64,000 nt of DNA from a virus. The translations under genes were made by a program, and so were the position numbers. Positions within the stretch are counted from its first letter, which is position 1; every line of letters starts with the position of its first letter. The notes under the pieces are model-generated. The model did not search any database. It saw only the letters and a program-made list of their open reading frames with translations, and was not told the origin of the DNA. Positions 3,462 through 51,376 of the stretch are shown piece after piece. The stretch lies in IMG/VR virus record IMGVR_UViG_3300024262_003767; one strand, written 5' to 3'.

Positions 3462-3671
3462 TTATTTGTTCTTTGAAAACCATTTTCTTGTGATTTTATC
3501 GAAAATCTTATCTCCATAATATTTTATAACGGTGGCAATTGTTGATATAACAAAAGATGCAACGATACTATCAAGTAATCCGAAACCATAAAATACCATA
3601 GATATTGTTATTACTATAAATATTAGTAAAAATAAGATTTTATATTTCTCCATTATTTGTGTAACTTTCAT
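3462..3671 (-). CDS. Small membrane protein (two predicted TM helices)
   Basis: Hydrophobic stretches LFLLIFIVITISMVFYGFGLL and VASFVISTIATVI. Confidence 0.3.
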   Translation of the reverse strand: MKVTQIMEKYKILFLLIFIVITISMVFYGFGLLDSIVASFVISTIATVIKYYGDKIFDKITRKWFSKNK

Positions 3672-3689
3672 ATTATGATTTATTTATTT

Positions 3690-5215: not shown

Positions 5216-5216
5216 T

Positions 5217-5651
5217 TTAATAGTCTGTTATTAATTTTCCAATTAGATGATCATATTCGTGTTGAATTATACGTGCCATAACACCTTCAAATTCTTGTTG
5301 TTTATACTCCCATGCTCTATTGTGATATTGTATTCTAACTCTACCTTTTCGTGTGACAGTTATTGGTATATCAGGCACACTCAAACAACCTTCAGTCATT
5401 TGTTCTGAATGACCAAATGCGTATATTTTAGGATTTATATATGTTTCCTCAAAACCTTCATATGAAACAATAAATAGGTTTAAATTTTTACTAACTTGTG
5501 GTGCTGCTAATCCAACCCCAGTTGATGATCTCAAAGTTTCAAACATATCCGATATTAACTTTTTAGAATGTTCATTATTTATAACATCTATGTTTGGTTT
5601 TCTTAATATACCTCTTGGATCTTGATTATATTTTATTACATCTAATATCAT
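5217..5651 (-). CDS. def: Peptide deformylase
   Basis: All three PDF motifs: GVGLAAPQ, EGCLS, QHEYDHL (HExxH). Confidence 0.9.
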   Translation of the reverse strand: MILDVIKYNQDPRGILRKPNIDVINNEHSKKLISDMFETLRSSTGVGLAAPQVSKNLNLFIVSYEGFEETYINPKIYAFGHSEQMTEGCLSVPDIPITVTRKGRVRIQYHNRAWEYKQQEFEGVMARIIQHEYDHLIGKLITDY

Positions 5652-5657
5652 TATTTG

Positions 5658-6491
5658 TTATATAATTTTTAATTTTTTAAGTTTATCTTTATCATAAACT
5701 TCTATTTTTTTGTCTCTATATTGTTTTTTAAAAGCAAGATATTTATCTTTTGCATCATCTCTCCACCAGCCTTTAACTTCAACATATAAATCACAATCAA
5801 TAAGGTAAAAATCTGGTCTATATGTTCCTTCAGCATTATTATAATTGATAGGAAATGCTTCTGGTTCAAAGAACCATTCTATGTTATTTTTATCCAAATA
5901 AGTTGCATATTTTATTTCCCAAGAACTTCTCATCCACACAGAATCACCATTTTTACATTTATACCATTCACCTTTACCATGATAACATTTACCATAAAAA
6001 TTAGATTCCTTACCTCTTTTTACATTTTTACTTTTATTGATTAGCATTTTTTGATATCTTATGTTTGCTTCTATTTCGCCATATTTTTCTAACCAAACAC
6101 TAAATACTGAACGACCATACATTGGATTTTTATCACCAGACATTTTGACACTTATCTTTTTTTTAGTTTTGTCTGAATGATAATTACCTATGTTAGATTG
6201 ACTTATTTTTTTCTTTACCTCGTCTGTTCTATGCTTACCTTTAAAATGATGTGTATTATTTTTGTGCCATTCGATAAGTTTTTCAATCTTAACATCTTTA
6301 TTTGTATTCGCATTCACTTTATTAGAACACGATAAGCATAGATCATTTTTAACTGCATATCTATATTTTTTTTCTACTTCAGCATCACAATCTTTACATT
6401 TCCAAATTACAGTCTTTTCGCTACTTGGTTTCAAATCATTTGAATAATACCCAAACATATCCTTTGTTTTTTGTTCTAAAATAATACCCAT
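5658..6491 (-). CDS. Homing-endonuclease-like protein: Zn ribbon, NUMOD3 repeats, and a PD-(D/E)xK-like C-terminus
   Basis: WKCKDCDAE..CLSCSNK; NUMOD3-like KGKHRTDEVKKKISQSNIG and HSDKTKKKISVKMSGDKNPMYG; C-terminal YRPDFYLIDCDLYVEVKGWW. Confidence 0.6.
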   Translation of the reverse strand: MGIILEQKTKDMFGYYSNDLKPSSEKTVIWKCKDCDAEVEKKYRYAVKNDLCLSCSNKVNANTNKDVKIEKLIEWHKNNTHHFKGKHRTDEVKKKISQSNIGNYHSDKTKKKISVKMSGDKNPMYGRSVFSVWLEKYGEIEANIRYQKMLINKSKNVKRGKESNFYGKCYHGKGEWYKCKNGDSVWMRSSWEIKYATYLDKNNIEWFFEPEAFPINYNNAEGTYRPDFYLIDCDLYVEVKGWWRDDAKDKYLAFKKQYRDKKIEVYDKDKLKKLKII

Positions 6492-6554
6492 AACATTTAT
6501 ATATTTTTCGATTATATATAAATATATACCAGTTGTATTTGTACCAAAAACAAA

Positions 6555-7016
6555 TTATATTATATATTTCCAAAATTCTTCAGGTAAATGAATATTTGTT
6601 AAAAACAAAACATTTTTAAATAATGGTGCAATGTCTGATGCTGCATAACCTGCTAACCCGCAACCTATTGGAGTAACTAAAAATATTTGTTCCTTATGTT
6701 TACAAGCATATTCAATAAAATTACCAACATACTTTTGGATTTCGATTACTGATAATGTTTTAATATTTTTATCTTTTGTTGGTATTGCATATGTTTGACC
6801 CTGAATTCCTTCACCTTGACCATAAATTGCGCCCCATTTAATTGCTTGTTTTGCTGCCCCTTTACCATGTCTTCCCGATTTGTTAGATCCAAAAATAAAC
6901 ACTTCATTGTCTTTTAATTTAGTAATTTTTTCTGGTGTTACTCTTTTTTCTTTATTAATATATTTACTATCACTAAAGTAAGAACCTCTCATTGCTTCTG
7001 ATCTTCCATCTGACAT
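6555..7016 (-). CDS. Glycine-rich Rossmann-like protein (SLOG/LOG/DprA-like?), function unknown
   Basis: FIFGSNKSGRHGKGAAKQAIKWGAIYGQGEGIQGQTYAIPTKD and TPIGCGLAGY glycine-rich loops; no confident family match. Confidence 0.25.
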   Translation of the reverse strand: MSDGRSEAMRGSYFSDSKYINKEKRVTPEKITKLKDNEVFIFGSNKSGRHGKGAAKQAIKWGAIYGQGEGIQGQTYAIPTKDKNIKTLSVIEIQKYVGNFIEYACKHKEQIFLVTPIGCGLAGYAASDIAPLFKNVLFLTNIHLPEEFWKYII

Positions 7017-7139
7017 TGTTTTAATTGTTTTAATTTTAATTTTCTTAAATAACTATTTAATCCTTTTTCATTATTTACAAAATGTGATAACCCCATATTT
7101 TATATAATGTATTTTACTTTTTGTGATTTGTTTAAATAA

Positions 7140-7166
7140 AAAAAGGGCTACAATAGCCCTTTTTCA
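7140..7166. terminator. Hairpin with flanking A/T runs at the 3' end of minus ORF 7148..7390
   Basis: AAAAAAAGGGCT-acaat-AGCCCTTTTT. Confidence 0.5.
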
Positions 7167-7838
7167 ATCCATTTTCCATTAATTTTAACTTTATCAAGTT
7201 TTGTTAATGTAAATCTCCATTTTTCAGGAAAATCTAATAATCTTAGATTCATTTGTGTTACCATTTTATGAGCAGTTTTATACTCATTTTGATTAGTGTT
7301 CACCTCTATCAATTGATAAGGTGCGTGATACCCATTACGGTGTATCAGATCAACTCTCCAAAGTTGACATCTTTCGCTTGTGTTTGCCATAATCTGAACT
7401 AGTCAGACTACGATGTATTAAAATACCTCATACAACTATATATTATTTATTCTGTGTGAAGTTTTCTTATTTTTGATTTTTTATTTAGTTCATCAAGTTT
7501 CATCTTTCTCAACGCCAAATTACCTAAAAATCGTTTAACAGTGGTCCAAACCATGGTGCCTTTATCACCTTGTATTTTTATTTTACCTGGTTTTTTATCT
7601 AAAACTTTATATACCTTACCAACTGTAAAAGATTGTATCTTTTCTGCTGTTCCATTTTTAGAAAATCTTGGATCAAATGATAAATCTCTATCATCAAAAC
7701 ACAATATAGTATCACCTATATTACAATCTCCATGTTTCAACAACATTCTATCAAGTTCTATTTGTTTTTGGTAGAAATGTAAATTATAAAATTTTTTTGA
7801 ACGTAATTTATTTATCATATAATGATATATGATAAACT

Positions 7839-8660
7839 TTAAGAAATGTTTTCAAGTTTTAATGCTCTGATTTGTTTTTTAGAAAAAATATTAGTTTTTG
7901 ACTTCTTTATTAAATGTGAAAATATTTTATTTTGTATTAATTTTTTCTTTACGGAAAAATCCGCATTTACTATTTTTTCTTCAAATTCAATTAAACATTC
8001 AGGCTCACGACCATCACCTAAATAAACTTTATCTCCTACTGTGTGAAACCAAAACCATTCTATTTTAATGTCATTTTCTTTAAACAATTTATCTACTTCT
8101 GAACTTAAATAATAATAAAAATATGTTAATAATTCAGTTAAAAATTCAGTTTCAGAAAATCCATCATTACTATTTAAATAATAATACCAAAAATTACTAG
8201 GTTCAACACCTAACTCAAGACAAAGATTATCAATTTTATCAATATTTTTGTTGGTTTTATTAAAAACATAGTCATTAAACAAACTTTTAAATGATTTAGT
8301 ATCTCCATTACCTTTATCACAATTACATTTTGAACACATTGTCTGATAATTGGTAGAAGTGTTTTTACCACCTTTAGATTTTGGTATGATGTGATCTTTC
8401 GTCATTAAAATTTCATCACCGTTTTCATTTACACCATACATATTGATGTGATATTTTTCAATTTCGGGTAAATGCTTCTCAATTGCTAAAAAAATTCCTT
8501 CAAGTCCACATTCAACACAGAATCTATTTTCTTGAAATAATTTGTATCGTTGTGAGGTTATCTTAACAGTAACCCCGTTAATTGTTCGGTATCTATTTGG
8601 TCCTACACTATCCTTTAGTTTTTTTAAATAACTTATATCTAATTTACTATGTCTTATCAT
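7839..8660 (-). CDS. HNH endonuclease
   Basis: HIIPKSKGGKNTSTNYQTMCSKCNCDKGNG HNH motif with Cys ligands. Confidence 0.75.
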   Translation of the reverse strand: MIRHSKLDISYLKKLKDSVGPNRYRTINGVTVKITSQRYKLFQENRFCVECGLEGIFLAIEKHLPEIEKYHINMYGVNENGDEILMTKDHIIPKSKGGKNTSTNYQTMCSKCNCDKGNGDTKSFKSLFNDYVFNKTNKNIDKIDNLCLELGVEPSNFWYYYLNSNDGFSETEFLTELLTYFYYYLSSEVDKLFKENDIKIEWFWFHTVGDKVYLGDGREPECLIEFEEKIVNADFSVKKKLIQNKIFSHLIKKSKTNIFSKKQIRALKLENIS

Positions 8661-8675
8661 CTTTTTATTTAAAAA

Positions 8676-9188
8676 TTATTTCAGGTAAATAGGATCAACG
8701 TGATCAACTAACCATACACCATTTTCTGATTGATAAAATTTAATTTTATCAACAATCATTGGATAAGTATCAATTTTGAAGATATATGGAGTATCATTTT
8801 TACAATATCTATTTGCAACATCTAAAGCAGTATCATAATCAGCACTTAGATGTACATGATTTCTTTTCATTTTAGAAAGTCCATTTTTTCTAATTGATTT
8901 AACATTTCTAGATGCTGTGCCGTGATATAAAAATTTTGGTGGCATCTTTGATTTCAATTCAACATCAACTTTTAAAGAATGTCCTTGATTTGCTCTAATT
9001 TTAGTTTCATCTTCATTAAAACTAAATCTTTTCTTATCATTATTATCTACAATCCATTGTAAATCTTCAAATGATATATTAACTTTATTCAATAAATCAT
9101 CAACATCAACCCAACCATTTTTATCCATAGACAAATCTTCTGGGTTATGTCTTAATAAATAACTTATTTGTATTCCTTTATTTTTCAT
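8676..9188 (-). CDS. kptA: RNA 2'-phosphotransferase Tpt1/KptA
   Basis: LSYLLRHNPEDL...NGWVDVDDLL, RANQGHS, HGTASRNVKSIRKNGLSKMKRNHVHL, matching Tpt1 family conserved blocks. Confidence 0.8.
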   Translation of the reverse strand: MKNKGIQISYLLRHNPEDLSMDKNGWVDVDDLLNKVNISFEDLQWIVDNNDKKRFSFNEDETKIRANQGHSLKVDVELKSKMPPKFLYHGTASRNVKSIRKNGLSKMKRNHVHLSADYDTALDVANRYCKNDTPYIFKIDTYPMIVDKIKFYQSENGVWLVDHVDPIYLK

Positions 9189-17500: not shown

Positions 17501-18367
17501 ATGACGAAAGTAGATTACAAAACGAATTATATTGAACCTCAAGATTTTAACCTCTTAATTTCAAAATTAAGAGGATTTTTTATGGAAAATGGTTTCCTTG
17601 AGACATTTCCACAACCTAAATTAACAATACTTGCAGCGTGTGAAGACCCAAAAACTGTTAGAAGTTTTGAATTTGGTGGTGAAAAATTTCCACTACCCCA
17701 AACAAATCAGATGAACTTGGAAGAAGAACTTATGGTAGACTCAACAATAGATGGACTTTTTTGCTTAACAGCATCATATAGAGATGAACCAAACCCTATT
17801 GAAGGTCGCCACATGAAATCATTTCCAATGTTTGAAGCAGAACATAAAGGGGATTTTTCAAATCTAATACAAACAATAAGTGAGTGTTGTGTGTATTTAG
17901 GTTTAGTCGAAAAGGTTGCCGATATCCCAATATTCACATATGATGAACTTTGTGAACATTATAAAGTTGAAGATTTAACTTCTACTGAAGAAACATTGAT
18001 GTGTAAAGAATATGGTGATGTTGTCGCTATTACTATGTTTCCTGATAGGACAGATCCATTTTTCAACATGCGTGTTGATGGTTGTAACTTAAAAGGTGAA
18101 AAATTGTCCAACAAAGTAGATTTTATTGTTTGTGGACAGGAAACATTTGGTTGTGCTGAAAGAGAGATAGACATAAACTTAATGAGGAATAACTTCCACA
18201 CAATTAGTAATGGCGGGTATTCTGGACTATTATTTGAAAAATTTGGTAAGGAAAGAGTTGAAAAGGAATTGGAAGACTTTTTGAAATTGCCAATGATTGA
18301 AAGGTGGGGATTTGGTTGTGGTTTGACTAGATTATCAAGAGCAATGAAAAAGAAAGGATTAATTTAA
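17501..18367 (+). CDS. Class II aminoacyl-tRNA synthetase catalytic-core paralogue (EpmA/PoxA- or AsnA-like), no anticodon-binding domain
   Basis: Aligns block by block with E. coli EpmA: LLISKLRGFFMENGFLETFPQPKLT (motif 1 region), YRDEPNPIEGRHMKSFPMFEAE (motif 2, fRxE...H.pEFTMLE), RWGFGCGLTRLSRAM (motif 3, G.G.G.DR). Confidence 0.65.
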   Translation: MTKVDYKTNYIEPQDFNLLISKLRGFFMENGFLETFPQPKLTILAACEDPKTVRSFEFGGEKFPLPQTNQMNLEEELMVDSTIDGLFCLTASYRDEPNPIEGRHMKSFPMFEAEHKGDFSNLIQTISECCVYLGLVEKVADIPIFTYDELCEHYKVEDLTSTEETLMCKEYGDVVAITMFPDRTDPFFNMRVDGCNLKGEKLSNKVDFIVCGQETFGCAEREIDINLMRNNFHTISNGGYSGLLFEKFGKERVEKELEDFLKLPMIERWGFGCGLTRLSRAMKKKGLI

Positions 18368-19362
18368 TTAATCCTTTCTTTTTTTAGTAAAATATAATTT
18401 TTACTGATGGAATTATTTATTATTCCTTCATAACTTATTCTATTTGAACCTATCAAATTTAATTTGATATTAAGTTCATTAAAATATTTTCTCATTTCAT
18501 TTCTACCTTGAAATTCTTCAATTTTATCATCTGGACATTTTATTGTATATAACATCAATTTTCTATGTGACATTTGTGATGATTTATTTGTTCTTTTATT
18601 TACACTCCAACTCATATTTCGATAATCATTAGATTTATTATATAGATTATATCCTTTAGATCCATTTTTATATAATATTGCTGCTGGGCTTATTTTGTGT
18701 TTACCTGTTAATTTTTTTTCTTCATTCAATTCTCTAAAATACCCATGTACATTTTTTGAACCACTCATTTTTATTATATCTCCTTGTGGTGTCTTTATTT
18801 CATAAATTACTGATAGTGTTTTTTTTATTTTGTCAATAGTAATGCTAGTTTTATTTTTTTTGTAATTGGCGTTTTTGTGTGTCTCATAATACCTTTTTAA
18901 AGAGTCTCCAATTTTTTTCAATTTAGTTGCACTTCGTTTACTTTCTTGAAATTTTTTTGATATTTTTAACGATGCTGATATATTCTTTTTATGTTTATCT
19001 GTAAAAATTACACCACTTTCACCTTCACCACCATCACTTAAATTTATTAATGATCCTAATTTTAAATCTTTCCTTCCTATCTTTTTTATTGTAAGTTTTT
19101 CTAAATTAAATGATATATTTTCCTTTAAATTTTCATACAATTTAATAATTATTGGTTCTACCCCACTCTCTCTAATTTTTTTAATTTTATAGTACCGTAT
19201 TTTACTTTTTTTTATAACACTTTCATATAAGTGTACTTTAAATCTATCACCCTTACCTTTACCGACATAAAATGGTTCATGATCAAAAATTAAATCATCA
19301 AAAATATATTTACCAGGTTTTCTTGGATCTAAATAAACATAAACATAAAATTCATCACACAT
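18364..19362 (-). CDS. GIY-YIG homing endonuclease
   Basis: N-terminal YVYVYLDPRKPG...FYVGKGKGDR (GIY...YIG) with catalytic R and later E/N. Confidence 0.8.
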   Translation of the reverse strand: MCDEFYVYVYLDPRKPGKYIFDDLIFDHEPFYVGKGKGDRFKVHLYESVIKKSKIRYYKIKKIRESGVEPIIIKLYENLKENISFNLEKLTIKKIGRKDLKLGSLINLSDGGEGESGVIFTDKHKKNISASLKISKKFQESKRSATKLKKIGDSLKRYYETHKNANYKKNKTSITIDKIKKTLSVIYEIKTPQGDIIKMSGSKNVHGYFRELNEEKKLTGKHKISPAAILYKNGSKGYNLYNKSNDYRNMSWSVNKRTNKSSQMSHRKLMLYTIKCPDDKIEEFQGRNEMRKYFNELNIKLNLIGSNRISYEGIINNSISKNYILLKKERIN

Positions 19363-24949: not shown

Positions 24950-25249
24950 TTACCTCTCTTTTTTTAATCGTTTTGTTTTTTGTTTTCGTAATTGCCTTCG
25001 TAATGCTTCAGTTGCCATATCAATTGAACGTTCAAAGTTTTCAGATTGTTTTTTTGAATATAAAGAACAACCTTGACAATTTAATTTAATTTCAACAATT
25101 TTATTTTCAGGTTTATTCCCTATTCCTAATATTACGTCAACATCTATAATATGTTGATGATGTTCTGTTAATTTTTTAATTTTTTCTTTTATAAAAAAAA
25201 CGAGTTTATTGTCTGTTTTAAAATGAACAGATTCAATGTTTAAATTCAT
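24950..25249 (-). CDS. hpf: Ribosome hibernation promoting factor (HPF/RaiA, short form)
   Basis: MNLNIESVHFKTDNKLVFFIKEKIKKLTEHHQHIIDVDVIL matches the HPF N-terminal fold consensus; 99 aa. Confidence 0.8.
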   Translation of the reverse strand: MNLNIESVHFKTDNKLVFFIKEKIKKLTEHHQHIIDVDVILGIGNKPENKIVEIKLNCQGCSLYSKKQSENFERSIDMATEALRRQLRKQKTKRLKKER

Positions 25250-26772: not shown

Positions 26773-27324
26773 ATGGAACAATTAATTTGGAAAAAATGGA
26801 ATCGGGAAACTATTGATGATATCAATCAGTATGTCTTGGATTATGTAAAAAATGTTGATAGGAATGTTAAGATTATTGTTGGTTGTGACTCACATCCACA
26901 TAGAAGAAGATTAGTATATGCTGTCACTATTATTTTATATAATGAATCACTCAGAAAGGGTGCTCACGTTGTTTATGCTAAAGTAAAAATACCAAGATTG
27001 CGTGATGTTAGTGCAAAAATTAGAAAGGAAGCAGAATTTGTTTATACTGTTGCTGAATCCTTAGACCAAACATTAAGGGGCACTTACTATCATAAGTTTG
27101 ATAAAAATACTTACGATGATACTATCCCAACCAAATTAGTTGAAGTTCACGTTGATGTTAATCCTAAGAGAAACACAAGAAATGGTAGAAAATATTCAAA
27201 TAACTTATCTAATGATGTATATCAAGAAATTATGGGTTGGTTATGTGGTTCAGGTTTCAAGGTGTTCGCTAAACCACATGCGTATGGTTCAACTGGATCT
27301 GCGGATAAATTATCAAAAAGTTAA
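26773..27324 (+). CDS. Hypothetical protein (possible RNase-H-like YkuK/DUF458?)
   Basis: KIIVGCDSHPHRRRLVYAVTII block; weak. Confidence 0.25.
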   Translation: MEQLIWKKWNRETIDDINQYVLDYVKNVDRNVKIIVGCDSHPHRRRLVYAVTIILYNESLRKGAHVVYAKVKIPRLRDVSAKIRKEAEFVYTVAESLDQTLRGTYYHKFDKNTYDDTIPTKLVEVHVDVNPKRNTRNGRKYSNNLSNDVYQEIMGWLCGSGFKVFAKPHAYGSTGSADKLSKS

Positions 27325-27352
27325 ATTAAAAAGCCTAATTATATTAGGCTTT

Positions 27353-28216
27353 TTAATTTAATTCACCTTCCCAAACAATTTTATATTCATATTTACCTGG
27401 TAGTAGTATAATTTCTCTTTGATTTGTATGGTAATATTGTGTTGGTAATTTCTGTACGTCAACTAGTACATCTTTAGGTTGTACTTCCATCATAATAACA
27501 AAAGGTGGTGATGATGGTTGTTCATCCACAAATCTTCTAGCCACTAATATATTTGTAGTCCAAGATGTCGACATATTGAAATCGGATATAACTTTTTCAC
27601 CAACTTTGTATGGTGGGGTTTTTTTTGAAAAATGTTTTATTTGAACTTCTTCAATACCTTTATAAATCTTTAAAGGTTTATCTGGTTTAAAAGGTTTTAA
27701 TTCGTCTATAATATCTTGTGTTAATTTTGATAATAACAAAGAGCCAGAACCTATATATGAATATAACCAATCATCAGTTTTTTCAGATAATTCAACATTT
27801 ATCCTTTCAGGTGTATGTTTATCATATTTAGTAAATCCTCCAATGTAACGAAAAGATATCACATCTCCATTTTTAATTCTTGCTAACCATTCACCTGTTA
27901 TTGAATGTTTATAAAAATAACCAGAATAATCATCAACATCAACTTCTTCATCTTCACTAAATCCAAAAAAATCTACAATTTGTTTATATAGAGGTTTTTT
28001 TGTTTTAATTTGATAGATATATTCACTATTTATATCAGATGCGTCTGCTCTATTTGTTAAATAGATTCTTTTTAAATGATTTAGATTACTAAAATCTATA
28101 TCTTCTAATTTTAATGGTTCATCAGAATATAAATATAAATTTCCATTATATGTTTTTTGATCGTAATCTACTTCATTATAATCTACAAGTTCAAATAATT
28201 TGAATTTAGTTATCAT
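27353..28216 (-). CDS. Hypothetical protein with a possible C-terminal ADP-ribosyltransferase-like domain
   Basis: FNMSTSWTT (STS) followed about 55 aa later by NQREIILLPG (Q-x-E); upstream IYKG in the position of the YRG Arg; overlaps the CCA-enzyme gene by 11 nt. Confidence 0.3.
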   Translation of the reverse strand: MITKFKLFELVDYNEVDYDQKTYNGNLYLYSDEPLKLEDIDFSNLNHLKRIYLTNRADASDINSEYIYQIKTKKPLYKQIVDFFGFSEDEEVDVDDYSGYFYKHSITGEWLARIKNGDVISFRYIGGFTKYDKHTPERINVELSEKTDDWLYSYIGSGSLLLSKLTQDIIDELKPFKPDKPLKIYKGIEEVQIKHFSKKTPPYKVGEKVISDFNMSTSWTTNILVARRFVDEQPSSPPFVIMMEVQPKDVLVDVQKLPTQYYHTNQREIILLPGKYEYKIVWEGELN

Positions 28217-29465
28217 TCATAAGATATTCATTTTTGAAACGCACAATCTCTCGTCTTTTCTTTTCTATTTCAATTTCAATTCCTTTGAAACCTTCAGCAG
28301 CTAAATCATTACCATTAACCACAAATCCATCATTACAATAATCAACAAATGGTTTATAGAATTCTTCACCCAAAAACTCATAAATTAAATCATCATCAAT
28401 ATGATATTGATTTTTCATTTTAGCCAAACCGTAAACATTTGAAACGTCAATGTTTTTAAATGATTTCCAATGTAAATCTAATTCCTTCTCAAGTTTGAGC
28501 AAAAATTCAATCTGGTTCACTAACTTGGAACTAAATTTCAATTCACTAATCATATATTTTCTCAATTTACGAATATCATTATCACGAAGTAAATGTGCAA
28601 ATAATATTGCGGAAATAGGTTTTGGTGTAAATCCATCGGGAGATATTTTCAATTTGGGAAACATTTGTTCCCACATATCATATTCAGTTAATAGTCTGAT
28701 ATAATTTTCTAATATTTTGTTTCCGCCTTTTTCTGCGTGTTCAATTACCTTATTCCATTCTTCATGTATTCTTTCTTGTGATACATCTTCTTTGGTACTT
28801 ATACCACGTAGTCTGTTATCACTTTTAATGGCTCTTGATGTCTCAGGTGATATGATACCACCTTTTCTACCTTGGGCTCTTGCAGCGAATCTAAATACTC
28901 TTAAAATTCTTAATCTATCTTCTTTAAATCTCTCAGCAGGATCACCAACAGCACGTATAACATTATTTTCAATATCTTTAACTCCACCAACCAAATCTAC
29001 AATTTCTTTTTTATTTATATCATAGAAAAGAGCATTGATAGTTAAATCTCTACGTTTAACATCATCTTCGATTGTAATATGGTTTCCAATTTCTACTTTA
29101 TCATCATCACCTTTTGTATCTCTACCTCCAGAAATATCTTTTCTAAAAGTTGCTAATTCGTGTCCGAGTGGTTCATCTTCAGTATAAATTCTAAGTACGC
29201 CAAAATTTTTACCTTGTTCATCAGAAACATTCCAACCTTTCAAAATTCTTTTACTTTCTTCTGGTAGAGCATTTGTGACTAAATCAAAATCATGTGGTAT
29301 CTTTTTTTGCAAAAAATCACGAACCGCTCCACCAACAACATAGATATCTTTACCAGCATTATTGAAGGCTCTTGATATTTCTTTAATGTCATAAGGAATA
29401 GGCATCTCAACAGAGATAGTATTTTCAGTTATAAATTCTAAATATTTTTTTAATTTTTCTACCAT
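28206..29465 (-). CDS. cca: tRNA nucleotidyltransferase (class II CCA-adding enzyme / polyA-polymerase head domain)
   Basis: VVGGAVRDFLQKKIPHDFDLV (GGxVRD...DxD) and RRDLTINALFYD motifs. Confidence 0.85.
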   Translation of the reverse strand: MVEKLKKYLEFITENTISVEMPIPYDIKEISRAFNNAGKDIYVVGGAVRDFLQKKIPHDFDLVTNALPEESKRILKGWNVSDEQGKNFGVLRIYTEDEPLGHELATFRKDISGGRDTKGDDDKVEIGNHITIEDDVKRRDLTINALFYDINKKEIVDLVGGVKDIENNVIRAVGDPAERFKEDRLRILRVFRFAARAQGRKGGIISPETSRAIKSDNRLRGISTKEDVSQERIHEEWNKVIEHAEKGGNKILENYIRLLTEYDMWEQMFPKLKISPDGFTPKPISAILFAHLLRDNDIRKLRKYMISELKFSSKLVNQIEFLLKLEKELDLHWKSFKNIDVSNVYGLAKMKNQYHIDDDLIYEFLGEEFYKPFVDYCNDGFVVNGNDLAAEGFKGIEIEIEKKRREIVRFKNEYLMNDN

Positions 29466-31773: not shown

Positions 31774-33954
31774 TTAATAAAATTGTTTAAATATTTTTGA
31801 GATTTTTTCTTTTGTTATTGGTTTTACAATTTGAAAATCTATATTCTTCTCTACCATATCTGTGGTAGATATTGTAATTATAGTTAACTCTTCATCTATT
31901 TGTTTTAATTTTTCTATGAAATCTAGTATATTAATATTTGATAAACTCATATCTATAAATATTGCATCAATATCACCTAATTTTTCTTCAAGTACATCAA
32001 GTGTTTCCTTTGATGATAGTGTCCATTTAATTTTAACATTCATAGATTTTAACATTATACCTAATAATGAATAGTTTTCAGGTATATCTTCTAATACTAT
32101 CACTTTAATATTAGAAAAATCATACACAATTTTATTAACTTGTTTTGTTTGAATATTTTGAACTTCTTGTAATGGAAGAGTAAAAAAGAATGTGCTTCCT
32201 TCTTTTTGAGTTGAATCTACCCATATATTTCCACCAAGTATATTAACTATACTTTTTGCGATAGATAATCCCAATCCTGTACCTTGGTATTGTTTTTTTG
32301 ATGATGCATCAACTTGCATAAATTTATCAAAAACTATTTCTAATTTATCTTCTGGAATACCAATACCAGTATCTTCAACAAAGAATGTTATAATATTGTC
32401 TTTTATTCTTGTACCAATTCTTATATGTCCACTTTCAGTAAATTTAATTGCATTACTAATCAAATTATATAATACCTGTTTTAATCTAAGAAAATCAGAC
32501 ACTATTATTTCATTATCTTCTCGTTTTTCGAAAGTTAATTTTACCGAATCTATATTCTTTCTAATATTTATATCTATAAAAATTTCTTCTAATTCTTCAA
32601 ATAAATCATTGATTGGGAATCGTTCATATAATAGTTCTAAATTTAATTCACCTGCTTCAATTTTAGCATAATCTAATATGTTATTTAATAATTCTTCTAA
32701 ATGTTTTGCATTAGCATTTATAGTTTTAAGAAATTTTTTATTATTGGTAGTATCAAACTTATCATCTAATAATATATCTGAAAAGCCTATAATCGAATTC
32801 ATTGGCGTTCTTATTTCGTGACTCATATTTGCCAAAAATAGTGACTTTAAAAGATCACTTTTTTCTGCTTCTATTTTTGATTTTTCTAATTCTATTTTAA
32901 TATTTTCTTGTTCTGTAATATCTTTACAATGAATTGCAATATACTCCGTTGAGCCATTATCATTTAAAATGGGATATATGTAATTTTCAAAATATTTATT
33001 ATTTATAACATCAATAAAATGTACTGGTTTGCCTGTAAATATTGCTTCAAGTGTTCTTTTTCTTTTGGGTTCTACACTCTCTTTAGGTAAAATCTGTGAT
33101 ATGTTCACTCCTACTAATTCTTCTCTTGTTTTATTAAAATATTTACAACCTCTATCATTTATTGCTAATAACTCACCTACTTTATTTGTTAAATAAGATG
33201 CACTTAATGTTGAATTTATAATATCTAAGTGTTGTCTCTCCTTTATTTTCATATCAGTAATATCTTGAAATATGGTAACAAAACGATGTGAGTTTTGTTT
33301 ATATGCATCAATTAAAAACCATTTCTGAAAAATATATGAATATTTTTCAAAATGTAAAGTCTTATTATCAGTAAATATTTGAGAATATATCCTTATCCAT
33401 TCACTCGAATCTTTATCTAATATTTCAGTTATATTTTTTCCAATAATTTCTGAATCTAAACCTGTGGTTTCGGTGAACGCTTTATTTATTCTAACAAATT
33501 TATAATCAATAGGTTTGCCACTATTATCAAATATCATTTCATGTAGAGAAAATGCTCGACTCATATTATCAATAATCTTTTCAAGTTCTTCACTTTTAAA
33601 AATATAATCTTTACTTATTTGAGATAAATGTTTTTCATCTTGATATACAACATGTACAAAATTTTCCTCACCTCGATAGATATAATTATATCTCCAACGA
33701 TTAAATTTATCGTCTTTATACTCTTTTAATTCGTGTGTCATACATTCTCCACTATCATACACTTTTAATATTTTATCATAAATACCAAAGTCGATTACTT
33801 TAGAAAAAACATCAACCAATTTTTTATCAATAACATCATATTCAATTCTTTCTACCGTATAAAAATTTTCTGATACTTCGTGAAAATATATATCTTCATC
33901 GATAATTTTATATGTGATAGAAACAAAATCAAAAATTTTTTCAAAATTTTTCAT
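31774..33954 (-). CDS. Cytoplasmic hybrid sensor histidine kinase (PAS domains, HisKA, HATPase_c, C-terminal receiver)
   Basis: H-box MSHEIRTPMNSIIGFSDIL; N, G1/G2 boxes (NLISNAIKFT, DTGIGI, GTGLGLSIAKSIV); receiver with VIVLEDIPEN and DAIFIDMSL; no TM segment. Confidence 0.9.
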   Translation of the reverse strand: MKNFEKIFDFVSITYKIIDEDIYFHEVSENFYTVERIEYDVIDKKLVDVFSKVIDFGIYDKILKVYDSGECMTHELKEYKDDKFNRWRYNYIYRGEENFVHVVYQDEKHLSQISKDYIFKSEELEKIIDNMSRAFSLHEMIFDNSGKPIDYKFVRINKAFTETTGLDSEIIGKNITEILDKDSSEWIRIYSQIFTDNKTLHFEKYSYIFQKWFLIDAYKQNSHRFVTIFQDITDMKIKERQHLDIINSTLSASYLTNKVGELLAINDRGCKYFNKTREELVGVNISQILPKESVEPKRKRTLEAIFTGKPVHFIDVINNKYFENYIYPILNDNGSTEYIAIHCKDITEQENIKIELEKSKIEAEKSDLLKSLFLANMSHEIRTPMNSIIGFSDILLDDKFDTTNNKKFLKTINANAKHLEELLNNILDYAKIEAGELNLELLYERFPINDLFEELEEIFIDINIRKNIDSVKLTFEKREDNEIIVSDFLRLKQVLYNLISNAIKFTESGHIRIGTRIKDNIITFFVEDTGIGIPEDKLEIVFDKFMQVDASSKKQYQGTGLGLSIAKSIVNILGGNIWVDSTQKEGSTFFFTLPLQEVQNIQTKQVNKIVYDFSNIKVIVLEDIPENYSLLGIMLKSMNVKIKWTLSSKETLDVLEEKLGDIDAIFIDMSLSNINILDFIEKLKQIDEELTIITISTTDMVEKNIDFQIVKPITKEKISKIFKQFY

Positions 33955-37323: not shown

Positions 37324-38334
37324 TTACTTAATCTTATTTTCTAAAATATTTTCAATATTTTTAAATTGAGTGTAGGCTATTCTCAACATTTTTATATCAT
37401 TTTCCTTACAATATTTATTTTTAATTTTATCATTTTGTTTCGTATATTTTAATCTTTCTTCACCTCCAAAATGTTCAACAGATTTATAATGTTGTATACC
37501 ATCATATTCCACACACATATTAAGTTCAGGTAAATAAAAATCAAAATGTAAAACTTGTTTATTTTTACATCCATTGAAAGTATATTGAGGTTCAAATTTA
37601 ATATTATTTTCTTTCAAATAATTTAATATTATTTCTTCTCCTTTAGATTGTTTACAACCTGGACAACCAACACCTCGCAAAATAGCGTTTGGTGTTATTT
37701 CCCATATATTATCACATTGATTACATTTTATTTTAACTTTATTATTTGCTTTAATATATTTACCTATAACTTCATATTTATCACCATGTACATTAAAAAC
37801 ATCTTTGATAAATTGTTCAGGTGTTTTTCTTTGTTTTTCACCCTTTTCTTTTGCTGAACATTCTGGACATTCACATTTTGTGTGTGATAAATGATACGGT
37901 TTAATTTTCCATATATTTTCACATATTTTACACCTAACCTTTACTTTTGTATTAGCATTAATATAATCTGATAAAAGTTCATACTTATCACCATAGTTAT
38001 TATTAAATTCTTCTTTAAATTTTTCTGGGGTTTTTCTTTGTTTTAAAACTGCACATTGTTTACAACCTCTACCCCTTAATAATGAATTACCGTTAGTTTT
38101 CCATTTATATCCACATTCATTACATCTAACTTCTATTTCTGATTTAGAATTTATGTAAGGTGATAATGTTGTAAATTTATCACCATAATTTTCCTTTAGT
38201 CTTTTTTGAAACCTTTCTTCTGAAAAACTTTTTGGTGCTAATTCGTGTGTTTCCCTATATTTTTCTTTTAGTTTTTTAAGTATTTTTTCTTTATTTTTTA
38301 GATAATATTGTTTATGCCATTCCTTATTATACAT
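37324..38334 (-). CDS. Homing-endonuclease-like protein: three Zn ribbons and a PD-(D/E)xK-like C-terminus
   Basis: Three copies of C.ECGYKWK.....LRG.GC..C; C-terminal VLHFDFYLPELNMCVEYDGIQH. Confidence 0.5.
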   Translation of the reverse strand: MYNKEWHKQYYLKNKEKILKKLKEKYRETHELAPKSFSEERFQKRLKENYGDKFTTLSPYINSKSEIEVRCNECGYKWKTNGNSLLRGRGCKQCAVLKQRKTPEKFKEEFNNNYGDKYELLSDYINANTKVKVRCKICENIWKIKPYHLSHTKCECPECSAKEKGEKQRKTPEQFIKDVFNVHGDKYEVIGKYIKANNKVKIKCNQCDNIWEITPNAILRGVGCPGCKQSKGEEIILNYLKENNIKFEPQYTFNGCKNKQVLHFDFYLPELNMCVEYDGIQHYKSVEHFGGEERLKYTKQNDKIKNKYCKENDIKMLRIAYTQFKNIENILENKIK

Positions 38335-39975: not shown

Positions 39976-41106
39976 TTATTCCTCTTTTTCTTTAACTAAG
40001 TTAAGATATATCTTTCTATCATCTTTGATAACAGAAATAACCTTAACTTTTACTTGATCACCTTTCGTTAATTTGGCATTATTCTTCACAAGGTATGTGG
40101 TTTGTATTAACCCCATAGTTTCATAGTCAAGTGAAATTAATGCTCCAAAATTTTTCACATCAATTACTTTTCCTGATAATATTTTACCTACTTTAATTTT
40201 ATCCCAAAGAGACTCTTTTAAAGATTGTGTTAGTATAATCTTTTGACTTTTTGTGATTTCCTTAACATAAAAATCAATTGCCATACCAGGTAGGATTTGG
40301 TGCCATCTATCTTGCCACTCAGTATTTATGTTCATTTTATGAATCATACCTGTAAGACAATTATTGAATTGAACAAATACTCCAAATGGTGTTGTTCCAG
40401 TAACTTCGCCTGCATAAACGACATCATTTTTTAGTTTTTTGATCTCTTCTGGTATAAGTGTCTTAAGATATTTTCTTCGTGAAACAACATAAACCCCCTT
40501 TTCTTGTTGCAATGTCTCTAACATCACATTTAGAGTTTCACCAATAATTGATTCAGGATTTGCGAGTTTATTAACATCAGCTAATGTATTTGGCATAAAC
40601 GCATCGATAGTTACATTATCCATATAAATATCAAGCATATAGCCTGCTGGTATTAATTCCTTCACCTTAGCAACAAGTGATAATCTTTCTTCATAATAAG
40701 TTTTCAATTTATTATGAACATTCATTTTAATTAATTCTGTAATAGATCCTCTTATTAAGAATGGATCGTCTTGAATTGATGTTATTAGTACATCAATTTG
40801 TGAACCAGGCTCTAACCCTATCACTAATTTTCCTTTTGGTGTGTCAACATAAATGTAGTCTTTATACCCAAAATCAACAGTTATTTCTGTATCATCTATA
40901 GATACTATCACACCTTTGATTATTTCCCCTTCTCTTACTTCTCTTAAATCAAGAAAAGTTTTTTCCATCATACGATAAAGATTTTGATAATCTTCAGTAA
41001 GATTAGATAAATCACCTTTTACTTTGATTATTTCTCTATCATTAGTTAGAAACGGAAAAGGATCAGGAAGTGATCCTACATTTACGCCTTCGATTAATTT
41101 CGACAT
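39976..41106 (-). CDS. rpsA: Ribosomal protein S1-like (multi-S1-domain RNA-binding protein)
   Basis: Three to four S1 repeats: GEIIKGVIVSIDD, GEVTGTTPFGVFVQF, GKILSGKVIDVKNFGALISLD...KGDQVKVKVISV. Confidence 0.7.
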   Translation of the reverse strand: MSKLIEGVNVGSLPDPFPFLTNDREIIKVKGDLSNLTEDYQNLYRMMEKTFLDLREVREGEIIKGVIVSIDDTEITVDFGYKDYIYVDTPKGKLVIGLEPGSQIDVLITSIQDDPFLIRGSITELIKMNVHNKLKTYYEERLSLVAKVKELIPAGYMLDIYMDNVTIDAFMPNTLADVNKLANPESIIGETLNVMLETLQQEKGVYVVSRRKYLKTLIPEEIKKLKNDVVYAGEVTGTTPFGVFVQFNNCLTGMIHKMNINTEWQDRWHQILPGMAIDFYVKEITKSQKIILTQSLKESLWDKIKVGKILSGKVIDVKNFGALISLDYETMGLIQTTYLVKNNAKLTKGDQVKVKVISVIKDDRKIYLNLVKEKEE

Positions 41107-46955: not shown

Positions 46956-49472
46956 TTAGGCTTCTAAAAGTGGAGTTTCATCTTTTGGTGGTAATTCTTT
47001 ACTATTCAAATTAACAATAGTAATCTCACCATCTTTACTTCTAAGTGAAACTTTATCACCAATTTTAATTTCACCATTGAGAATAGCATCTGTTAGAGTA
47101 TCTTCAATGTGTCGTTGAATTGCTCTTTTCAATGGTCTTGCACCATATTCAGCATCCCATCCTTCTTCAAATAAGAAGTCTTTAAGTGACTTTGTGATAT
47201 TTACAACATAACCAATATCTTTAAGTCTATCGAGAGTTGTTTTAATTTCAAGGTCAATAATTCTGAAAATGTTGTCTTTTGAAAGAGCGTTGAACATTAT
47301 AAGTTCATCAACTCTATTAAGAAATTCTGGTGCAAATTTCTTTTTCAATTCTTTATCAATAACAGCGTTCTTCTTATCTTGAATGTTTTTGTTGGTGGCA
47401 TTTGTTTGAAATCCCATACCTGTACCAAAATCTTTAAGTTGTCTTGAACCTGTATTCGATGTCATTATGATAATTGCGTTTTTAAAATTAACTCTTCTAC
47501 CATAACTATCAGTAAGAATTCCATCATCAAGAACTTGTAGAAGTATATTAAATACGTCTGGATGCGCTTTTTCCATTTCATCAAGAAGAACAATTGAATA
47601 TGGTTTTCTTCTGATGGCTTCAGTTAATTCACCACCATCATCATAACCAACATATCCTGGAGGCGCTCCAATCAATTTTGAAACTGAATGTTTTTCCATA
47701 TATTCAGACATATCAATTCTAATGAGGTTTTCTTCTGAACCAAAGAGTTCTTTTGCTAGAACCTTTGCTAAGTAAGTTTTACCGACACCTGTAGCACCTA
47801 AGAACATAAATGTTCCGACAGGTTTTTTAGGATCTTTGATACCAATTCTACTACGTTTGATTGAACGAACAATTTTATCAACAGCATCATCTTGTCCAAT
47901 AACAATATTTTTCATTTTAGTTCCAAGATTTCTCAATTTGTTTGATTCATCATCATCAACAGCATCAAGTGGGATTTTGGTCATCATTGAAACAACTTCA
48001 GCAATATCTTCTTTTCCAACGATTTCACGATTTTCGTCCAATTTTTCGTTCCATTCCTCTTTCAATTTTTTCAATTGTTCTGTAAGGTTTCTTTCTTTAT
48101 CTCTCCAAGAAGCAGCTTTTTCAAATTTCTGTTCGTCAACACATTCAGTTTTCTTTTTCTCGGCTTCTGAAATTTTACTTTCAAGAATAGAAATAGCTTT
48201 AGGTTGATTTGAATTTGAATCTACATGAACTTTGGCACCAGCTTCATCCAAAGCGTCAATTGCTTTATCTGGCATAAATCTATCATTCATATATTTATCA
48301 GTCAATTTTACACAAGCTTCAATTGCTTCATCTGTGTACACGACTTTGTGATAATCCTCATATCTAACTTTGAGTTGTTTAAGGATTTCAATAGTTTCTT
48401 CAATGGTAGTAGGTTCTACCACAACTTTTTGAAATCTTCTTTCTAATGCACCATCTTTTTCAATATGTTTTCTATATTCTTCGAGAGTAGTTGCACCAAT
48501 ACATTGGAATGTTCCTCTTGCTAATGCTGGTTTTAACATATTAGATGCATCAAGTGAACCTTGTGCGCTACCAGCACCAATAATTGTATGAATTTCATCA
48601 ATAAAAAGTATAATGTTTGATGTTTCTTCAATTTCTTTGATAATTCCTCTTAAACGAGATTCAAATTCGCCACGATATTTTGTTCCTGCAACAAGGGCAC
48701 CCATATTAAGGGTGAAAATTCTTTTATCTTTAATGTTGTTTGGCACTTTACCATCAACAATTCGTTGTGCTAAACCTTCAACAATTGCAGATTTGCCAAC
48801 TCCAGGCTCACCTATAAGAATAGGATTATTTTTCTTTCTACGTGAAAGAATTTGACTTATTCTTTTAATCTCAATTTTTCTACCAACAACTGGATCGAGA
48901 GAACCTTCTTTTGCTTTTTTGGTAATATCTTCACCAAATTGTTCAATAAGTTTAGGTTTCTTATTTTTATTTGATGCTGTTGTATCACTATGATGCATTT
49001 CTGGATCATCCCAATCTGCACTATTACTTATTCCAGTAACTTTTTCGTGTAATTTTTTAATTATCTCACCTTCATCAATTTTTGAAAACATATCATTTAA
49101 AATATTATTTTTAGTATTTAAGAGTGAAAGTAATACTACATCAGTATCAACATATTTGACATCCATTTCATCAATTATTCCAACACAATTTTCAAGTATG
49201 TCCGTAACTTCTTGTGATAATTGTACTTTATCTTTTCTCTCTGCCAATTGAATATGCTCCATTTGGTTTCTCATTACCAAAGCATCTTGAATAGTTTTTT
49301 TGATTGTTGGAATACGAATATCAATTTCTTGAAGAACTTGATAAGCACGATAATTTTCATCCTCAATTAGAGCCAAAAACAAGTGTTCTGGTTCAATTTC
49401 AGATGATTTATATTGCAACGCAATCGTCTTACTATTCTTAATCACATTATCTACGTCTTTGTTAAAGTTCAT
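46956..49472 (-). CDS. clpC: ClpC-type AAA+ unfoldase (Clp_N, two AAA modules, UVR-like M-domain)
   Basis: Clp_N repeats ([16 protein letters not shown]); Walker [19 protein letters not shown] and GATGVGKT; UVR motif [11 protein letters not shown]; sensor-2 [10 protein letters not shown]. Confidence 0.9.
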
Positions 49473-49538
49473 AATTAATTTTTTTAGTTATAATTTATAT
49501 ATTTAATTTTCTTTATAGGAGTTTTCCTCTTTTGTTTA

Positions 49539-49760
49539 TTAAAATAAATTGAAAATATCAATGTTTTTTGTTTCTCTCTCAAATATCATACCAAGATAAA
49601 ATAATGGAAAAAAGATAATAGATGCTACCCAAATATATATTCCTCGTACAAACCAAGCTGGTTTGATAAATGGTATCGCCCAATTTTTATATAAGTCCCA
49701 ATCTTCTTTCACAAAATTTAGATAAATATATAACATATATTTTGCTATAAATATTTTCAT
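49539..49760 (-). CDS. Small membrane protein
   Basis: Hydrophobic WVASIIFFPLFYLGMIF. Confidence 0.3.
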   Translation of the reverse strand: MKIFIAKYMLYIYLNFVKEDWDLYKNWAIPFIKPAWFVRGIYIWVASIIFFPLFYLGMIFERETKNIDIFNLF

Positions 49761-49777
49761 TCGTTTTTTATTATTTT

Positions 49778-50080
49778 TTAATCTTTCTCAATCGTGAGTG
49801 TTAATCCTTGTTCTTCAAGTGCGGATTTAAAAGGTTTTAATTTATCTTTTGAACCAGTTTTTAAGATACTCGCACCTTTCATATGAACTGTCCAAGCTGT
49901 GTTTTCAGCTTTTTCTGGACTAAAACTCATAATTGATATCAGACATAAAATTACATGATCAAAAGAATTGACTTCATCATTCCATAAAATCAATTTATAG
50001 ACTTTATCATCCGATGGTTCAATACCCGCTTTACTGAGTATTTCTTCTAATGTTTTTGTTATTTCTTTTGTGTCGCTCAT
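49778..50080 (-). CDS. clpS: ClpS adaptor protein
   Basis: YKLILWNDEVNSFDHVILCLISIM...AENTAWTVHMKGASIL matches ClpS (YKVILLNDDYTPMEFV...ATQLML.VH..G). Confidence 0.85.
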   Translation of the reverse strand: MSDTKEITKTLEEILSKAGIEPSDDKVYKLILWNDEVNSFDHVILCLISIMSFSPEKAENTAWTVHMKGASILKTGSKDKLKPFKSALEEQGLTLTIEKD

Positions 50081-51375
50081 ATTCCTAATTCCTCTTTATA
50101 TAGTTTAACAGTATTAAAGTTTCCAGTATATTTTCCTTCACTATCAGACAACTTTACACAATCTCTCCAAACTTTCATTCCTTCAGGTAAGGCTTCAGAC
50201 ATCTTAATTACCATATTTAAAGGTTTTGCCTTTTTTAAAGTTTCCATAAAATAACCACCATTTGGATTTGGTATCGATTCCCAATTAAATTGGTTATGAT
50301 AATCTTCATCATAGATACCATTTTGTGAAACCAAAACAACATCGTTTGATAGCCAAGTACCTATACCATAGGAAGATAATATTTTATTTCTCACACAATT
50401 TTCAATTGTTTTAATTTTTTCTATACTATTTATAGAGTCAGAAAATACAATTGTTTTTGGAATCATACCATTAGGCATTTTAATACCTTTATTTATGTAA
50501 TGTTTGATAGTTTTTTCTGCGAATTCAACAGGTTCACCAGAATCTTGACGAACACCGTCAAATAATTTTGAATAAAATAAATCAAAACCTTCAAAGAAAA
50601 TATCTGTTGTATATGTATCAGAAAGTGCAATTCCTAATGCTCCTTTATAAGCATCTACCCAACGACCCATTCCTACACGATTAGCCATCATCACACCGTA
50701 TTTAGCAGCGTGAAACATAAACCATTCGTGTGCCTGAGTTCCAATTGCTTTAATACCATATTTACGAGCAAACATCACATTGGATGTACCAACGATTGTT
50801 TTTGGTGCAACTTTCAAAAATTCTTCAATAACTCTACCTTGGATAAATTTTGAAAATCTTCTGCGGGTTCCAAATTCAGATAATGAAATTCCAAGTTCAG
50901 ATAATTGTTTAAATTTTTCATCCCAAATTTCCATTGACTTTTCTAAGTCAACTTCTTCACCTGAGAAAAGGAAGAATAATTCTGATATTAAAGCCATTAA
51001 TTGAACTTCCCAAAATATAGTTTTGTGCCAAAAACCTTCAATTTCTATTTCTAATACACCATTTTTTTGAGTAACTTTAACTTCATTAGGATCATATTGA
51101 TAACTCCTAAGATACATATAATAGGAAATATCAAAGAATGGAAGTTTACTTTTCAAATGTTCTTCAATTTCTTTGGTAAATTTTAAATTTTTGAAATGAG
51201 CAATCTGTTCTTTTAACTCGGTAGCAAAACCTTTTGGAAATTTACGGGTTTTATCTCTGAGTATGAACTTATACTTAACCTTAGCGTTAGGATAGTGTTT
51301 TAGTATGGCAAATTGCATGAAATACTTATAGGCGTCCTGATCATCAAATTCGGTAATTATTGGTTTAAATCTCAT
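50077..51375 (-). CDS. pncB: Nicotinate phosphoribosyltransferase (PncB/NAPRT)
   Basis: Colinear with E. coli PncB: DDQDAYKYFMQFAILKHY, LPFFDISYYMYLRSYQYDPNEVKVTQKNGVLEIEIEGFWHKTIFWEVQLMALISE, EFGTRRRFS, VGTSNVMFARKYGIKAIGTQAHEWF. Initially mistaken for NAMPT. Confidence 0.9.
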   Translation of the reverse strand: MRFKPIITEFDDQDAYKYFMQFAILKHYPNAKVKYKFILRDKTRKFPKGFATELKEQIAHFKNLKFTKEIEEHLKSKLPFFDISYYMYLRSYQYDPNEVKVTQKNGVLEIEIEGFWHKTIFWEVQLMALISELFFLFSGEEVDLEKSMEIWDEKFKQLSELGISLSEFGTRRRFSKFIQGRVIEEFLKVAPKTIVGTSNVMFARKYGIKAIGTQAHEWFMFHAAKYGVMMANRVGMGRWVDAYKGALGIALSDTYTTDIFFEGFDLFYSKLFDGVRQDSGEPVEFAEKTIKHYINKGIKMPNGMIPKTIVFSDSINSIEKIKTIENCVRNKILSSYGIGTWLSNDVVLVSQNGIYDEDYHNQFNWESIPNPNGGYFMETLKKAKPLNMVIKMSEALPEGMKVWRDCVKLSDSEGKYTGNFNTVKLYKEELGI

Positions 51376-51376
51376 A

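Follow-up and report, generated by a model that had tools for sequence, protein, structure and literature searches.

What kind of protein is encoded by a 287-amino-acid (aa) open reading frame (ORF) that overlaps the gene for a CCA-adding-type enzyme in the virus record IMGVR_UViG_3300024262_003767, and what might that protein do during infection? The stretch analyzed here, called the window throughout, comprises 64,000 nucleotides (nt) of this record. An initial annotation, made from the letters alone, described two minus-strand ORFs overlapping by 11 nt and compared the C-terminus of the downstream, 287-aa product with ADP-ribosyltransferases (ARTs) of the R-S-E clade, with lysine apparently in place of the usual arginine. 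The coordinates and the junction sequence agree with that description, and the motifs it named are all present at their places in the translations of both proteins. Motif conservation and profile alignment show the 287-aa protein to be a very divergent ART-fold member of the R-S-E clade, with an apparent distant relationship to the Mod family of phage T4. Taken as a whole, it is reasonably probable that this is a virus-specific two-domain protein of the ART superfamily that binds NAD+ (nicotinamide adenine dinucleotide), modifies a macromolecule and is paired with a CCA-type gene. The features on which the argument draws are the following.

28206..29465, minus strand: class II tRNA nucleotidyltransferase (CCA-adding/PcnB family), 419 aa, from the ORF, Pfam and PHROG
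27353..28216, minus strand: two-domain protein with a predicted ART fold, 287 aa, from the ORF
28206..28216, minus strand: 11 nt shared by the CCA-enzyme gene (stop region) and the ART gene (start), from the junction sequence
27797..28189, minus strand: N-terminal beta-rich domain, approximately residues 10-140, from conserved residues
27356..27796, minus strand: predicted C-terminal ADP-ribosyltransferase domain, R-S-E clade, approximately residues 141-287
27656..27664, minus strand: Y185-K186-G187, at the place of the NAD-phosphate-binding Arg of R-S-E ARTs, here Lys, from the translation
27560..27571, minus strand: S216-T217-S218-W219, STS-type motif, from the translation
27413..27421, minus strand: Q266-R267-E268, [QE]-x-E catalytic motif, from the translation
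27321..27361, no strand: hairpin of 19 pairs with a loop of 3, terminator-like site

The AlphaFold2 model of the 287-aa protein (predicted local distance difference test score of 86.4) contains the split beta-sheet core of the ART fold, and fold searches with this predicted structure show that fold in the C-terminal half (approximately residues 141-287). Against viral structures, Foldseek returns 12 matches at E ≤ 1e-3, which include uncharacterized proteins of giant viruses and phages as well as the S-PM2 ‘NAD-protein-arginine ADP-ribosyltransferase’. The corresponding search of the PDB retrieves Vis (score 6.7), a Listeria ART toxin (6.6), TreX (6.6) and C3bot2 (6.5), and further matches comprise TreTu, Certhrax, CPILE-a, heat-labile enterotoxin, VIP2, PARPs, diphtheria toxin, AcrIF11 and others. 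The initial annotation had offered its ART assignment tentatively and would have given it up had structure prediction shown some other fold; in both the PDB and the viral searches the predicted structure is an ART fold.

The residues expected of an R-S-E active site are conserved, with one telling substitution. We found 48 full-length metagenomic homologues of the 287-aa protein, 43 of which, at 46-71% identity, were aligned for all conservation counts among close homologues. Invariant residues in the C-terminal half are G187, E189, V191, S218, W219, N222, F229, D231, S235, Y261 and N265-Q266-R267-E268; Y262 and H263, which together with Y261 lie just before the Q266-R267-E268 motif, are nearly invariant. 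Position 186 is lysine in 41 of the 43 sequences and arginine in the remaining two (P0006 and P0009). Searched exhaustively by profile, 1.84 billion representative proteins yield 168 relatives, most of which align over residues ~140-285 only, and 91 remote C-terminal domains were used to count motifs outside the close family. At the first motif these carry [YF] in 88, R in 86 and G in 83 of the 91; the serine of the second motif is present in 88/91 and is followed by tryptophan in 88/91; and the third motif begins with Q in 46 or E in 31, continues with any residue and ends with E in 87/87. These columns, [YF]-R-G, [ST]-S-W-[TS] and [QE]-x-E, are the classical R-S-[QE]xE signature at the level of sequence.

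The same register is recovered when the family is aligned with characterized phage enzymes. A broad profile (A3), built from the C-terminal domain of the window's protein and 40 remote domains, aligns by hhalign with T4 ModB at 85% probability and a pairwise E of 6e-6, placing K186-G187 on R73-G74, S218-W-T-T on S-F-T-T and Q266-R-E268 on E-Q-E. ModB carries an R-S-EXE motif, and R73 is its catalytic residue, the one mutated to inactivate the enzyme (PMC10468400). T4 ModA is matched at 63% in the same register, and the controls and comparators Srd and DexA (0.1-0.9%) and Alt (0.65%) are not. With this broad profile, T4 ModB and ModA come out as the nearest characterized relatives. Given the motif columns and this register, the earlier reading of STS and Q-x-E as R-S-E motifs, and of IYKG as standing where the arginine normally lies, is correct. 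The likeness it proposed to T4 Alt, ModA, ModB and C3 enzymes divides: ModB and ModA stand, Alt does not, and the C3-like resemblance exists at the level of the fold only.

Comparison with these relatives shows how far the family has diverged. T4 ModB and ModA are also phage-encoded, share the motif order and register ([YF]-R/K-G, S-[WF]-T-T and [QE]-x-E, with a hydrophobic strand and P-x-G after the last), and are the only characterized proteins detectable at the profile level. They differ from the 287-aa protein in that lysine here replaces ModB R73, Q-x-E replaces E-x-E, and a conserved N-terminal domain of ~140 residues extends the protein to 287 aa, whereas the T4 enzymes have a single domain of ~200 aa. 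There is no pairwise sequence similarity between them, and the gene contexts are distinct, a CCA enzyme here versus the T4 early region. The C3-like, Vis and Certhrax mono-ART toxins are 12-15% identical and escape detection at the sequence level; unlike the 287-aa protein, they are secreted toxins with arginine at the first motif.

Membership in several other ART families was considered and, by the searches made here, is not borne out. The hhalign value for Alt speaks against the T4 Alt/VIP2 family, and the DRAT family (PF07357) gives no match to the 287-aa protein; weak DRAT matches occur in 8 of 107 remote relatives, the best at 7e-5. Tpt1/KptA enzymes belong to the H-H-h clade and have an N-terminal winged-helix lobe, whereas the motifs here are K/R-S-E, the H-H-h signature is absent and PF01885 does not match. 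Nor is a relationship to ART-PolyVal (PF18760) detectable, with the C-terminal-domain profile at 2% in hhalign; a stand-alone ART-PolyVal gene does lie beside the homologue in a sister genome (L012, below).

The N-terminal domain is conserved in its own right, with N55, Y66, Y68, K71, S98, G99, G127, Y131 and D132 invariant in the N-terminal half. In isolation it retrieves ART folds in the fold search, with weak resemblance, and we tentatively describe it from the model as a second, degenerate ART-like fold. A profile comparison of the N- and C-terminal domains gave no sign of an internal duplication. Tandem ART folds with catalytic motifs in the C-terminal copy only are known from binary toxins, in whose enzymatic components (iota Ia, C2-I, VIP2 and CPILE-a) the fold search aligns 142-168 residues. 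The N-terminal domain is likely to serve as a target-recognition or adaptor module. Two homologues, P0009 and P0047, carry an additional N-terminal extension of ~110 aa (residues 1 to ~115) with a conserved Cys...His...Asp pattern (GNCIHF ... EHTWIE ... IDPT); the pattern is suggestive of a papain-like fold, and Pfam gives no match to the extension.

The lysine at position 186 is the feature that most affects how activity is judged. R-S-E enzymes are marked by an arginine on strand 1 ([YF]-R-G), an STS-type serine motif on strand 2 and a [QE]-x-E motif on strand 5; the 287-aa protein has the second and third of these but K186 for the arginine, and a natural lysine at this place is unusual for the clade. 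In the S1 subunit of pertussis toxin, the guanidinium of Arg-9 contacts both phosphates of NAD+, and the R9K substitution inactivates the enzyme (PMC9079181). Position 186 is always basic, and S218, Q266 and E268 never vary, so the active site appears to be under constraint and not in decay. The interchange of lysine and arginine fits a charge-dependent phosphate contact, and from the alignments we infer a functional NAD+ site with a lysine-phosphate contact. The Q-x-E motif and the aromatic residues upstream of it resemble the ADP-ribosylating turn-turn (ARTT) arrangement of C3-type and guanine-specific enzymes, not the E-x-E of arginine-specific ones, and a non-arginine acceptor is therefore expected.

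On the reading that we favor, the 287-aa protein would still bind NAD+: the lysine (occasionally arginine) would contact the diphosphate, and the nicotinamide ribose would be positioned by S218 and E268. ADP-ribose would then be transferred to a macromolecular target during infection, and the Q-x-E form argues for asparagine, another side chain or a nucleic-acid group as the acceptor. Judged by its sequence, the protein is most likely an active viral mono-ART with a lysine-variant active site, whose target is probably not arginine. Alternatively, the protein may be less active, use another nucleotide as its substrate or have no catalytic role.

The two genes appear to form one transcription unit. 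The CCA-enzyme frame closes with ...CTT ATG AAT GAT AAC TAA at 28206, and the ART-gene ATG occupies 28216-28214. This start codon is credible because the N-termini of homologues coincide, as in MKYIKTFELVDY versus MITKFKLFELVDY. The 11-nt overlap suggests translational coupling. Beyond the second gene, the hairpin at 27321..27361 includes the stop codon of the ART gene together with the end of a convergent ORF at 26773-27324 (Pfam RNaseH_like PF04308, 2.2e-23), and it is likely a bidirectional terminator closing the CCA-ART unit. On its upstream side, the pair is bordered by a divergent gene. Given the overlap, the hairpin and this divergent neighbor, the pair is read as a compact two-cistron unit, and the co-transcription proposed in the initial annotation is plausible in light of the overlap and of the 19-bp hairpin after the second gene. 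The ART gene would be expressed as the distal cistron with the CCA-type nucleotidyltransferase, probably by translational coupling, and the unit would end at the hairpin.

The upstream protein is securely placed by its sequence in the class II CCA-adding/PcnB family, as first annotated. It contains a Pfam PolyA_pol head domain (PF01743, 1.5e-30) and matches PHROG 2244, tRNA nucleotidyltransferase (4e-52), and the class II motifs can be read from its translation: motif A (GGAVRD...DFD, within GGAVRDFLQKKIPHDFDL), motif B (RRDLTINAL) and motif D (EDRLR). The NCBIfam pcnB (162 bits) and CCA (142 bits) models match far under their cut-offs, as do all NCBIfam equivalog and subfamily models, and such hidden Markov model scores do not distinguish among CCA addition, A addition and poly(A) polymerization. 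Two uncultured phages, 635 and 642 kb in size, encode its best phage relatives, at 39-41% identity. Of the RNA-repair genes found in jumbo phages, those for CCA-adding enzymes are among the more common (PMC7824862).

Is the pairing with a CCA enzyme a property of the family? We compared ~30 loci with close homologues and could tell apart about a dozen contexts. The order CCA enzyme, ART and convergent RNaseH-like gene is found in the window (and contigs identical to it) and in L040, L023 and L012, a sub-clade in which identity falls to 53% for the ART and 41% for the CCA enzyme; epimerase, hibernation-promoting factor (HPF) and metallophosphatase genes are also collinear there. L012 additionally has a stand-alone 133-aa ART-PolyVal (PF18760, 41 bits against a cut-off of 31) at 3594-3995 on the plus strand, between the CCA and ART genes, of which the window has no copy. 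A second large clade has a different arrangement, with a conserved ~820-aa protein (p829), variable small ORFs, the ART and a convergent 161-aa gene (p161), and no CCA enzyme within 4-10 kb. The other contexts of close homologues offer no informative neighbors, and the small ORFs flanking homologues are not conserved and lack informative Pfam matches.

Remote relatives occupy yet other neighborhoods. In L020, whose ART is ~26% identical, a CCA enzyme of another kind, one that has an HD domain, is encoded 2 kb upstream in the same orientation; the order at 4613-8840 on the plus strand is CCA+HD, a 283-aa ORF, a 215-aa ORF, a 139-aa ORF and the ART-family member. The 283-aa ORF matches ART-PolyVal (1.2e-4) and the 215-aa ORF Tpt1/KptA (3.8e-3), both weakly and under Pfam cut-offs, and hhalign of the C-terminal-domain profile against the neighboring ORFs of L020 returned nothing. 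This locus may be a multi-ART RNA-end cassette. In L042, a giant-virus-like (or eukaryote-like) contig with RING-finger, protein-kinase and ankyrin genes, the remote member P0067 sits 43 nt downstream of a PARG_cat_microb gene (7209-8774, plus strand). By its arrangement this looks like a writer-eraser pair, and the PARG pairing gives independent support for a genuine ADP-ribose ‘writer’. A tail-sheath gene lies near the relative in L044, a neighborhood described previously for phage ARTs (PMC9503650), while L021 has neither a CCA enzyme nor a PARG or tail-sheath neighbor. The CCA-ART pairing is a recurrent feature of one sub-clade, far from universal and not family-defining.

Several observations weigh against an active ART that modifies a macromolecule. 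No family in Pfam (E ≤ 1), PHROGs or NCBIfam is matched by the 287-aa protein, and in PDB sequences phmmer and profile hmmsearch return noise only (such as beta-lactamase, S1 and ZorA), whether the query is the protein, the family profile or the broadened C-terminal-domain profile. The narrow family profile (A1) aligns with ModB at 2.6% only, so that the broad profile is needed for the link. Neither an eraser (macro, ARH or NADAR) nor a conserved partner was seen beside close homologues, and the active-site geometry proposed for K186, S218 and E268 is drawn from alignments only. By analogy with the R9K loss in pertussis toxin, the natural lysine could mean weak or altered activity.

That last point underlies the possibility that the exchange of arginine for lysine has disabled catalysis and left a binder of NAD or ADP-ribose, a decoy or a scaffold. 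Loss of the guanidinium that bridges both NAD+ phosphates inactivates pertussis toxin S1 (PMC9079181), the inactive ART folds PARP13, TASOR and RCD1 are among the fold matches, and the N-terminal domain already resembles a degenerate ART copy; yet invariance of S218, Q266 and E268 across 43 sequences as divergent as these would be unexpected after catalysis was lost, and position 186 stays basic, which makes a pseudo-enzyme quite improbable. A catalyst that consumes NAD+ and modifies no macromolecule, for example to manipulate a host NAD-dependent defense, is very unlikely. The weaker fold matches do include the ART-fold NADases Tne2 and Tse6 and NAD+-degrading RES toxins such as MbcT, and the phage's NAPRTase and isochorismatase-family (possible nicotinamidase) gene could offset the loss of NAD. 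By fold and by profile, the catalytic domain instead best matches the protein-modifying R-S-E enzymes ModB, ModA, Vis, C3 and Certhrax, the conserved second domain and the aromatic ARTT-like stretch (Y261, Y262, H263) suggest macromolecular recognition, and one relative is paired with PARG, which strips ADP-ribose off macromolecules. Chance resemblance, with coincidental motifs in a protein that is no ART, can draw on the lack of any curated model or PDB sequence that matches, and is effectively refuted by the agreement of four independent lines: fold searches against PDB and viral structures, motif conservation, the ModA/ModB profile alignment with its negative controls, and the PARG neighbor.

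A further alternative concerns the substrate: the ART and the co-transcribed CCA enzyme might act together on RNA, be it tRNA or another kind, and form a cassette for tRNA repair or modification. The chemistry could be ADP-ribosylation of an RNA terminus or 2'-OH, KptA-like removal of a 2'-phosphate, or ModB-like attachment of NAD-capped RNA to proteins. The 11-nt overlap, the synteny with the convergent RNaseH-like gene that persists across four diverged genomes (the window, L040, L023 and L012), the bona fide ART-PolyVal gene between the two genes in L012, and the L020 arrangement, with a CCA enzyme 2 kb upstream and weak ART-PolyVal and Tpt1/KptA matches between, all speak for it. The Q-x-E form, moreover, also occurs in the guanine-targeting ARTs Scabin and pierisin. 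S1-domain proteins are substrates of RNAylation by ModB, the nearest relative by profile (PMC10468400), and an S1-like protein is among the products of the window. Against this, most close homologues have no CCA enzyme within 4-10 kb, other remote relatives adjoin PARG or tail-sheath genes, and the synteny of the sub-clade extends to unrelated flanking genes and may reflect collinear genomes; moreover, the KptA signature and PF01885 match are lacking, the intermediate matches in L020 fall under Pfam cut-offs, and the window has no tRNA genes. We regard joint action with the CCA enzyme on RNA as unlikely.

A bolder form of this idea, which is quite doubtful, would make the K-S-E protein part of a recurrent huge-phage cassette of CCA enzyme, ART-PolyVal and ART-family member. 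If true, NAD+ or NAD-capped RNA would be used to modify or repair RNA 3' or 5' ends or to couple RNA to translation factors, the lysine-for-arginine exchange would reflect a substrate other than free NAD+, and tRNA end repair would be linked to ADP-ribosylation chemistry in an undescribed way. The recurrent, non-universal placement beside a CCA enzyme and other ART-fold genes offers a concrete candidate for phage ARTs that act on RNA ends.

The family has two further points of interest. A conserved natural lysine, where arginine-to-lysine exchange inactivates pertussis toxin S1, provides a useful test of the role of this residue. ARTs are among the first phage tools for host takeover and are encoded by >40% of jumbo phages, mostly as members of the Alt/VIP2, Mod, N4-like, PART and related families (PMC9503650). 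Given that frequency, one more phage ART is no surprise in kind, and ARTs of the present sort are currently missed in annotation.

The family appears to be sizeable and virus-only, present in huge phages and at least one giant-virus-like contig, and recognized by no curated model. No relatives were found in the 185,579 GTDB species genomes scanned, and tblastn with the 287-aa protein, its C-terminal domain and two remote relatives gave no match in 50,697 phage records. Among IMG/VR contigs, those with relatives of the gene reach 330 kb; three remote sub-family alignments, scanned against IMG/VR, found one locus only, and the broad profile, used in a word-indexed search, yielded no relatives beyond the earlier ones.

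The window itself is part of a huge-phage genome. Its G+C content is ~26%, it encodes phage-type SbcC-like and homing-endonuclease genes, and one virion-structural-protein-family match spans a laminin-G-like domain; tRNA and Rfam scans of the window returned nothing. Other genes are of a sort characteristic of very large phages: those for the S1-like protein, HPF/YfiA, ClpS with a ClpB-like ATPase, a hybrid histidine kinase, a thymidine kinase, and NAPRTase with its isochorismatase-family and cREC neighbors. The initial annotation had spoken of an NAD/RNA theme in this genome, and that theme is real: the window contains a NAPRTase, an isochorismatase-family (possible nicotinamidase) gene, a cREC gene, an S1-like protein and HPF. 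These and other features of the window are as follows.

50077-52569, minus strand: NAD salvage-type cluster of NAPRTase, an adjacent isochorismatase-family (possible nicotinamidase) gene and cREC, from NCBIfam
24950-25249, minus strand: HPF/YfiA ribosome hibernation-promoting factor, 99 aa (NCBIfam TIGR00741, 55.8 bits, cut-off 40.9)
39976-41106, minus strand: protein with several S1 domains, 376 aa, like a truncated ribosomal protein S1
46956-50080, minus strand: ClpB/ClpA-like double-AAA ATPase (838 aa) and ClpS adaptor homologue (100 aa)
31774-33954, minus strand: hybrid histidine kinase, 726 aa (PAS, HisKA, HATPase and receiver)
37324-38334, minus strand: protein with treble-clef zinc-finger (DUF4379), CapR-homology and PvuRts1I-like N-terminal domains, 336 aa
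1422-2321, 5658-6491, 7839-8660, 18364-19362 and 61267-62148: scattered homing-endonuclease-type genes (HNH, GIY-YIG and NUMOD3-containing)

The NAPRTase passes NCBIfam cut-offs and is adjoined by the gene for cREC, a cyclic-phosphate processing receiver domain. The S1-like protein is of note in that S1 is a target of T4 ModB, the nearest characterized ART relative. The HPF/YfiA gene is kept in the syntenic contig L012, and the ClpS homologue lies a short distance upstream of the ClpB/ClpA-like gene, between it and the NAPRTase gene. On two contigs of relatives, L007 and L009, genes for response-regulator receivers that stand alone lie close to the ART homologue.

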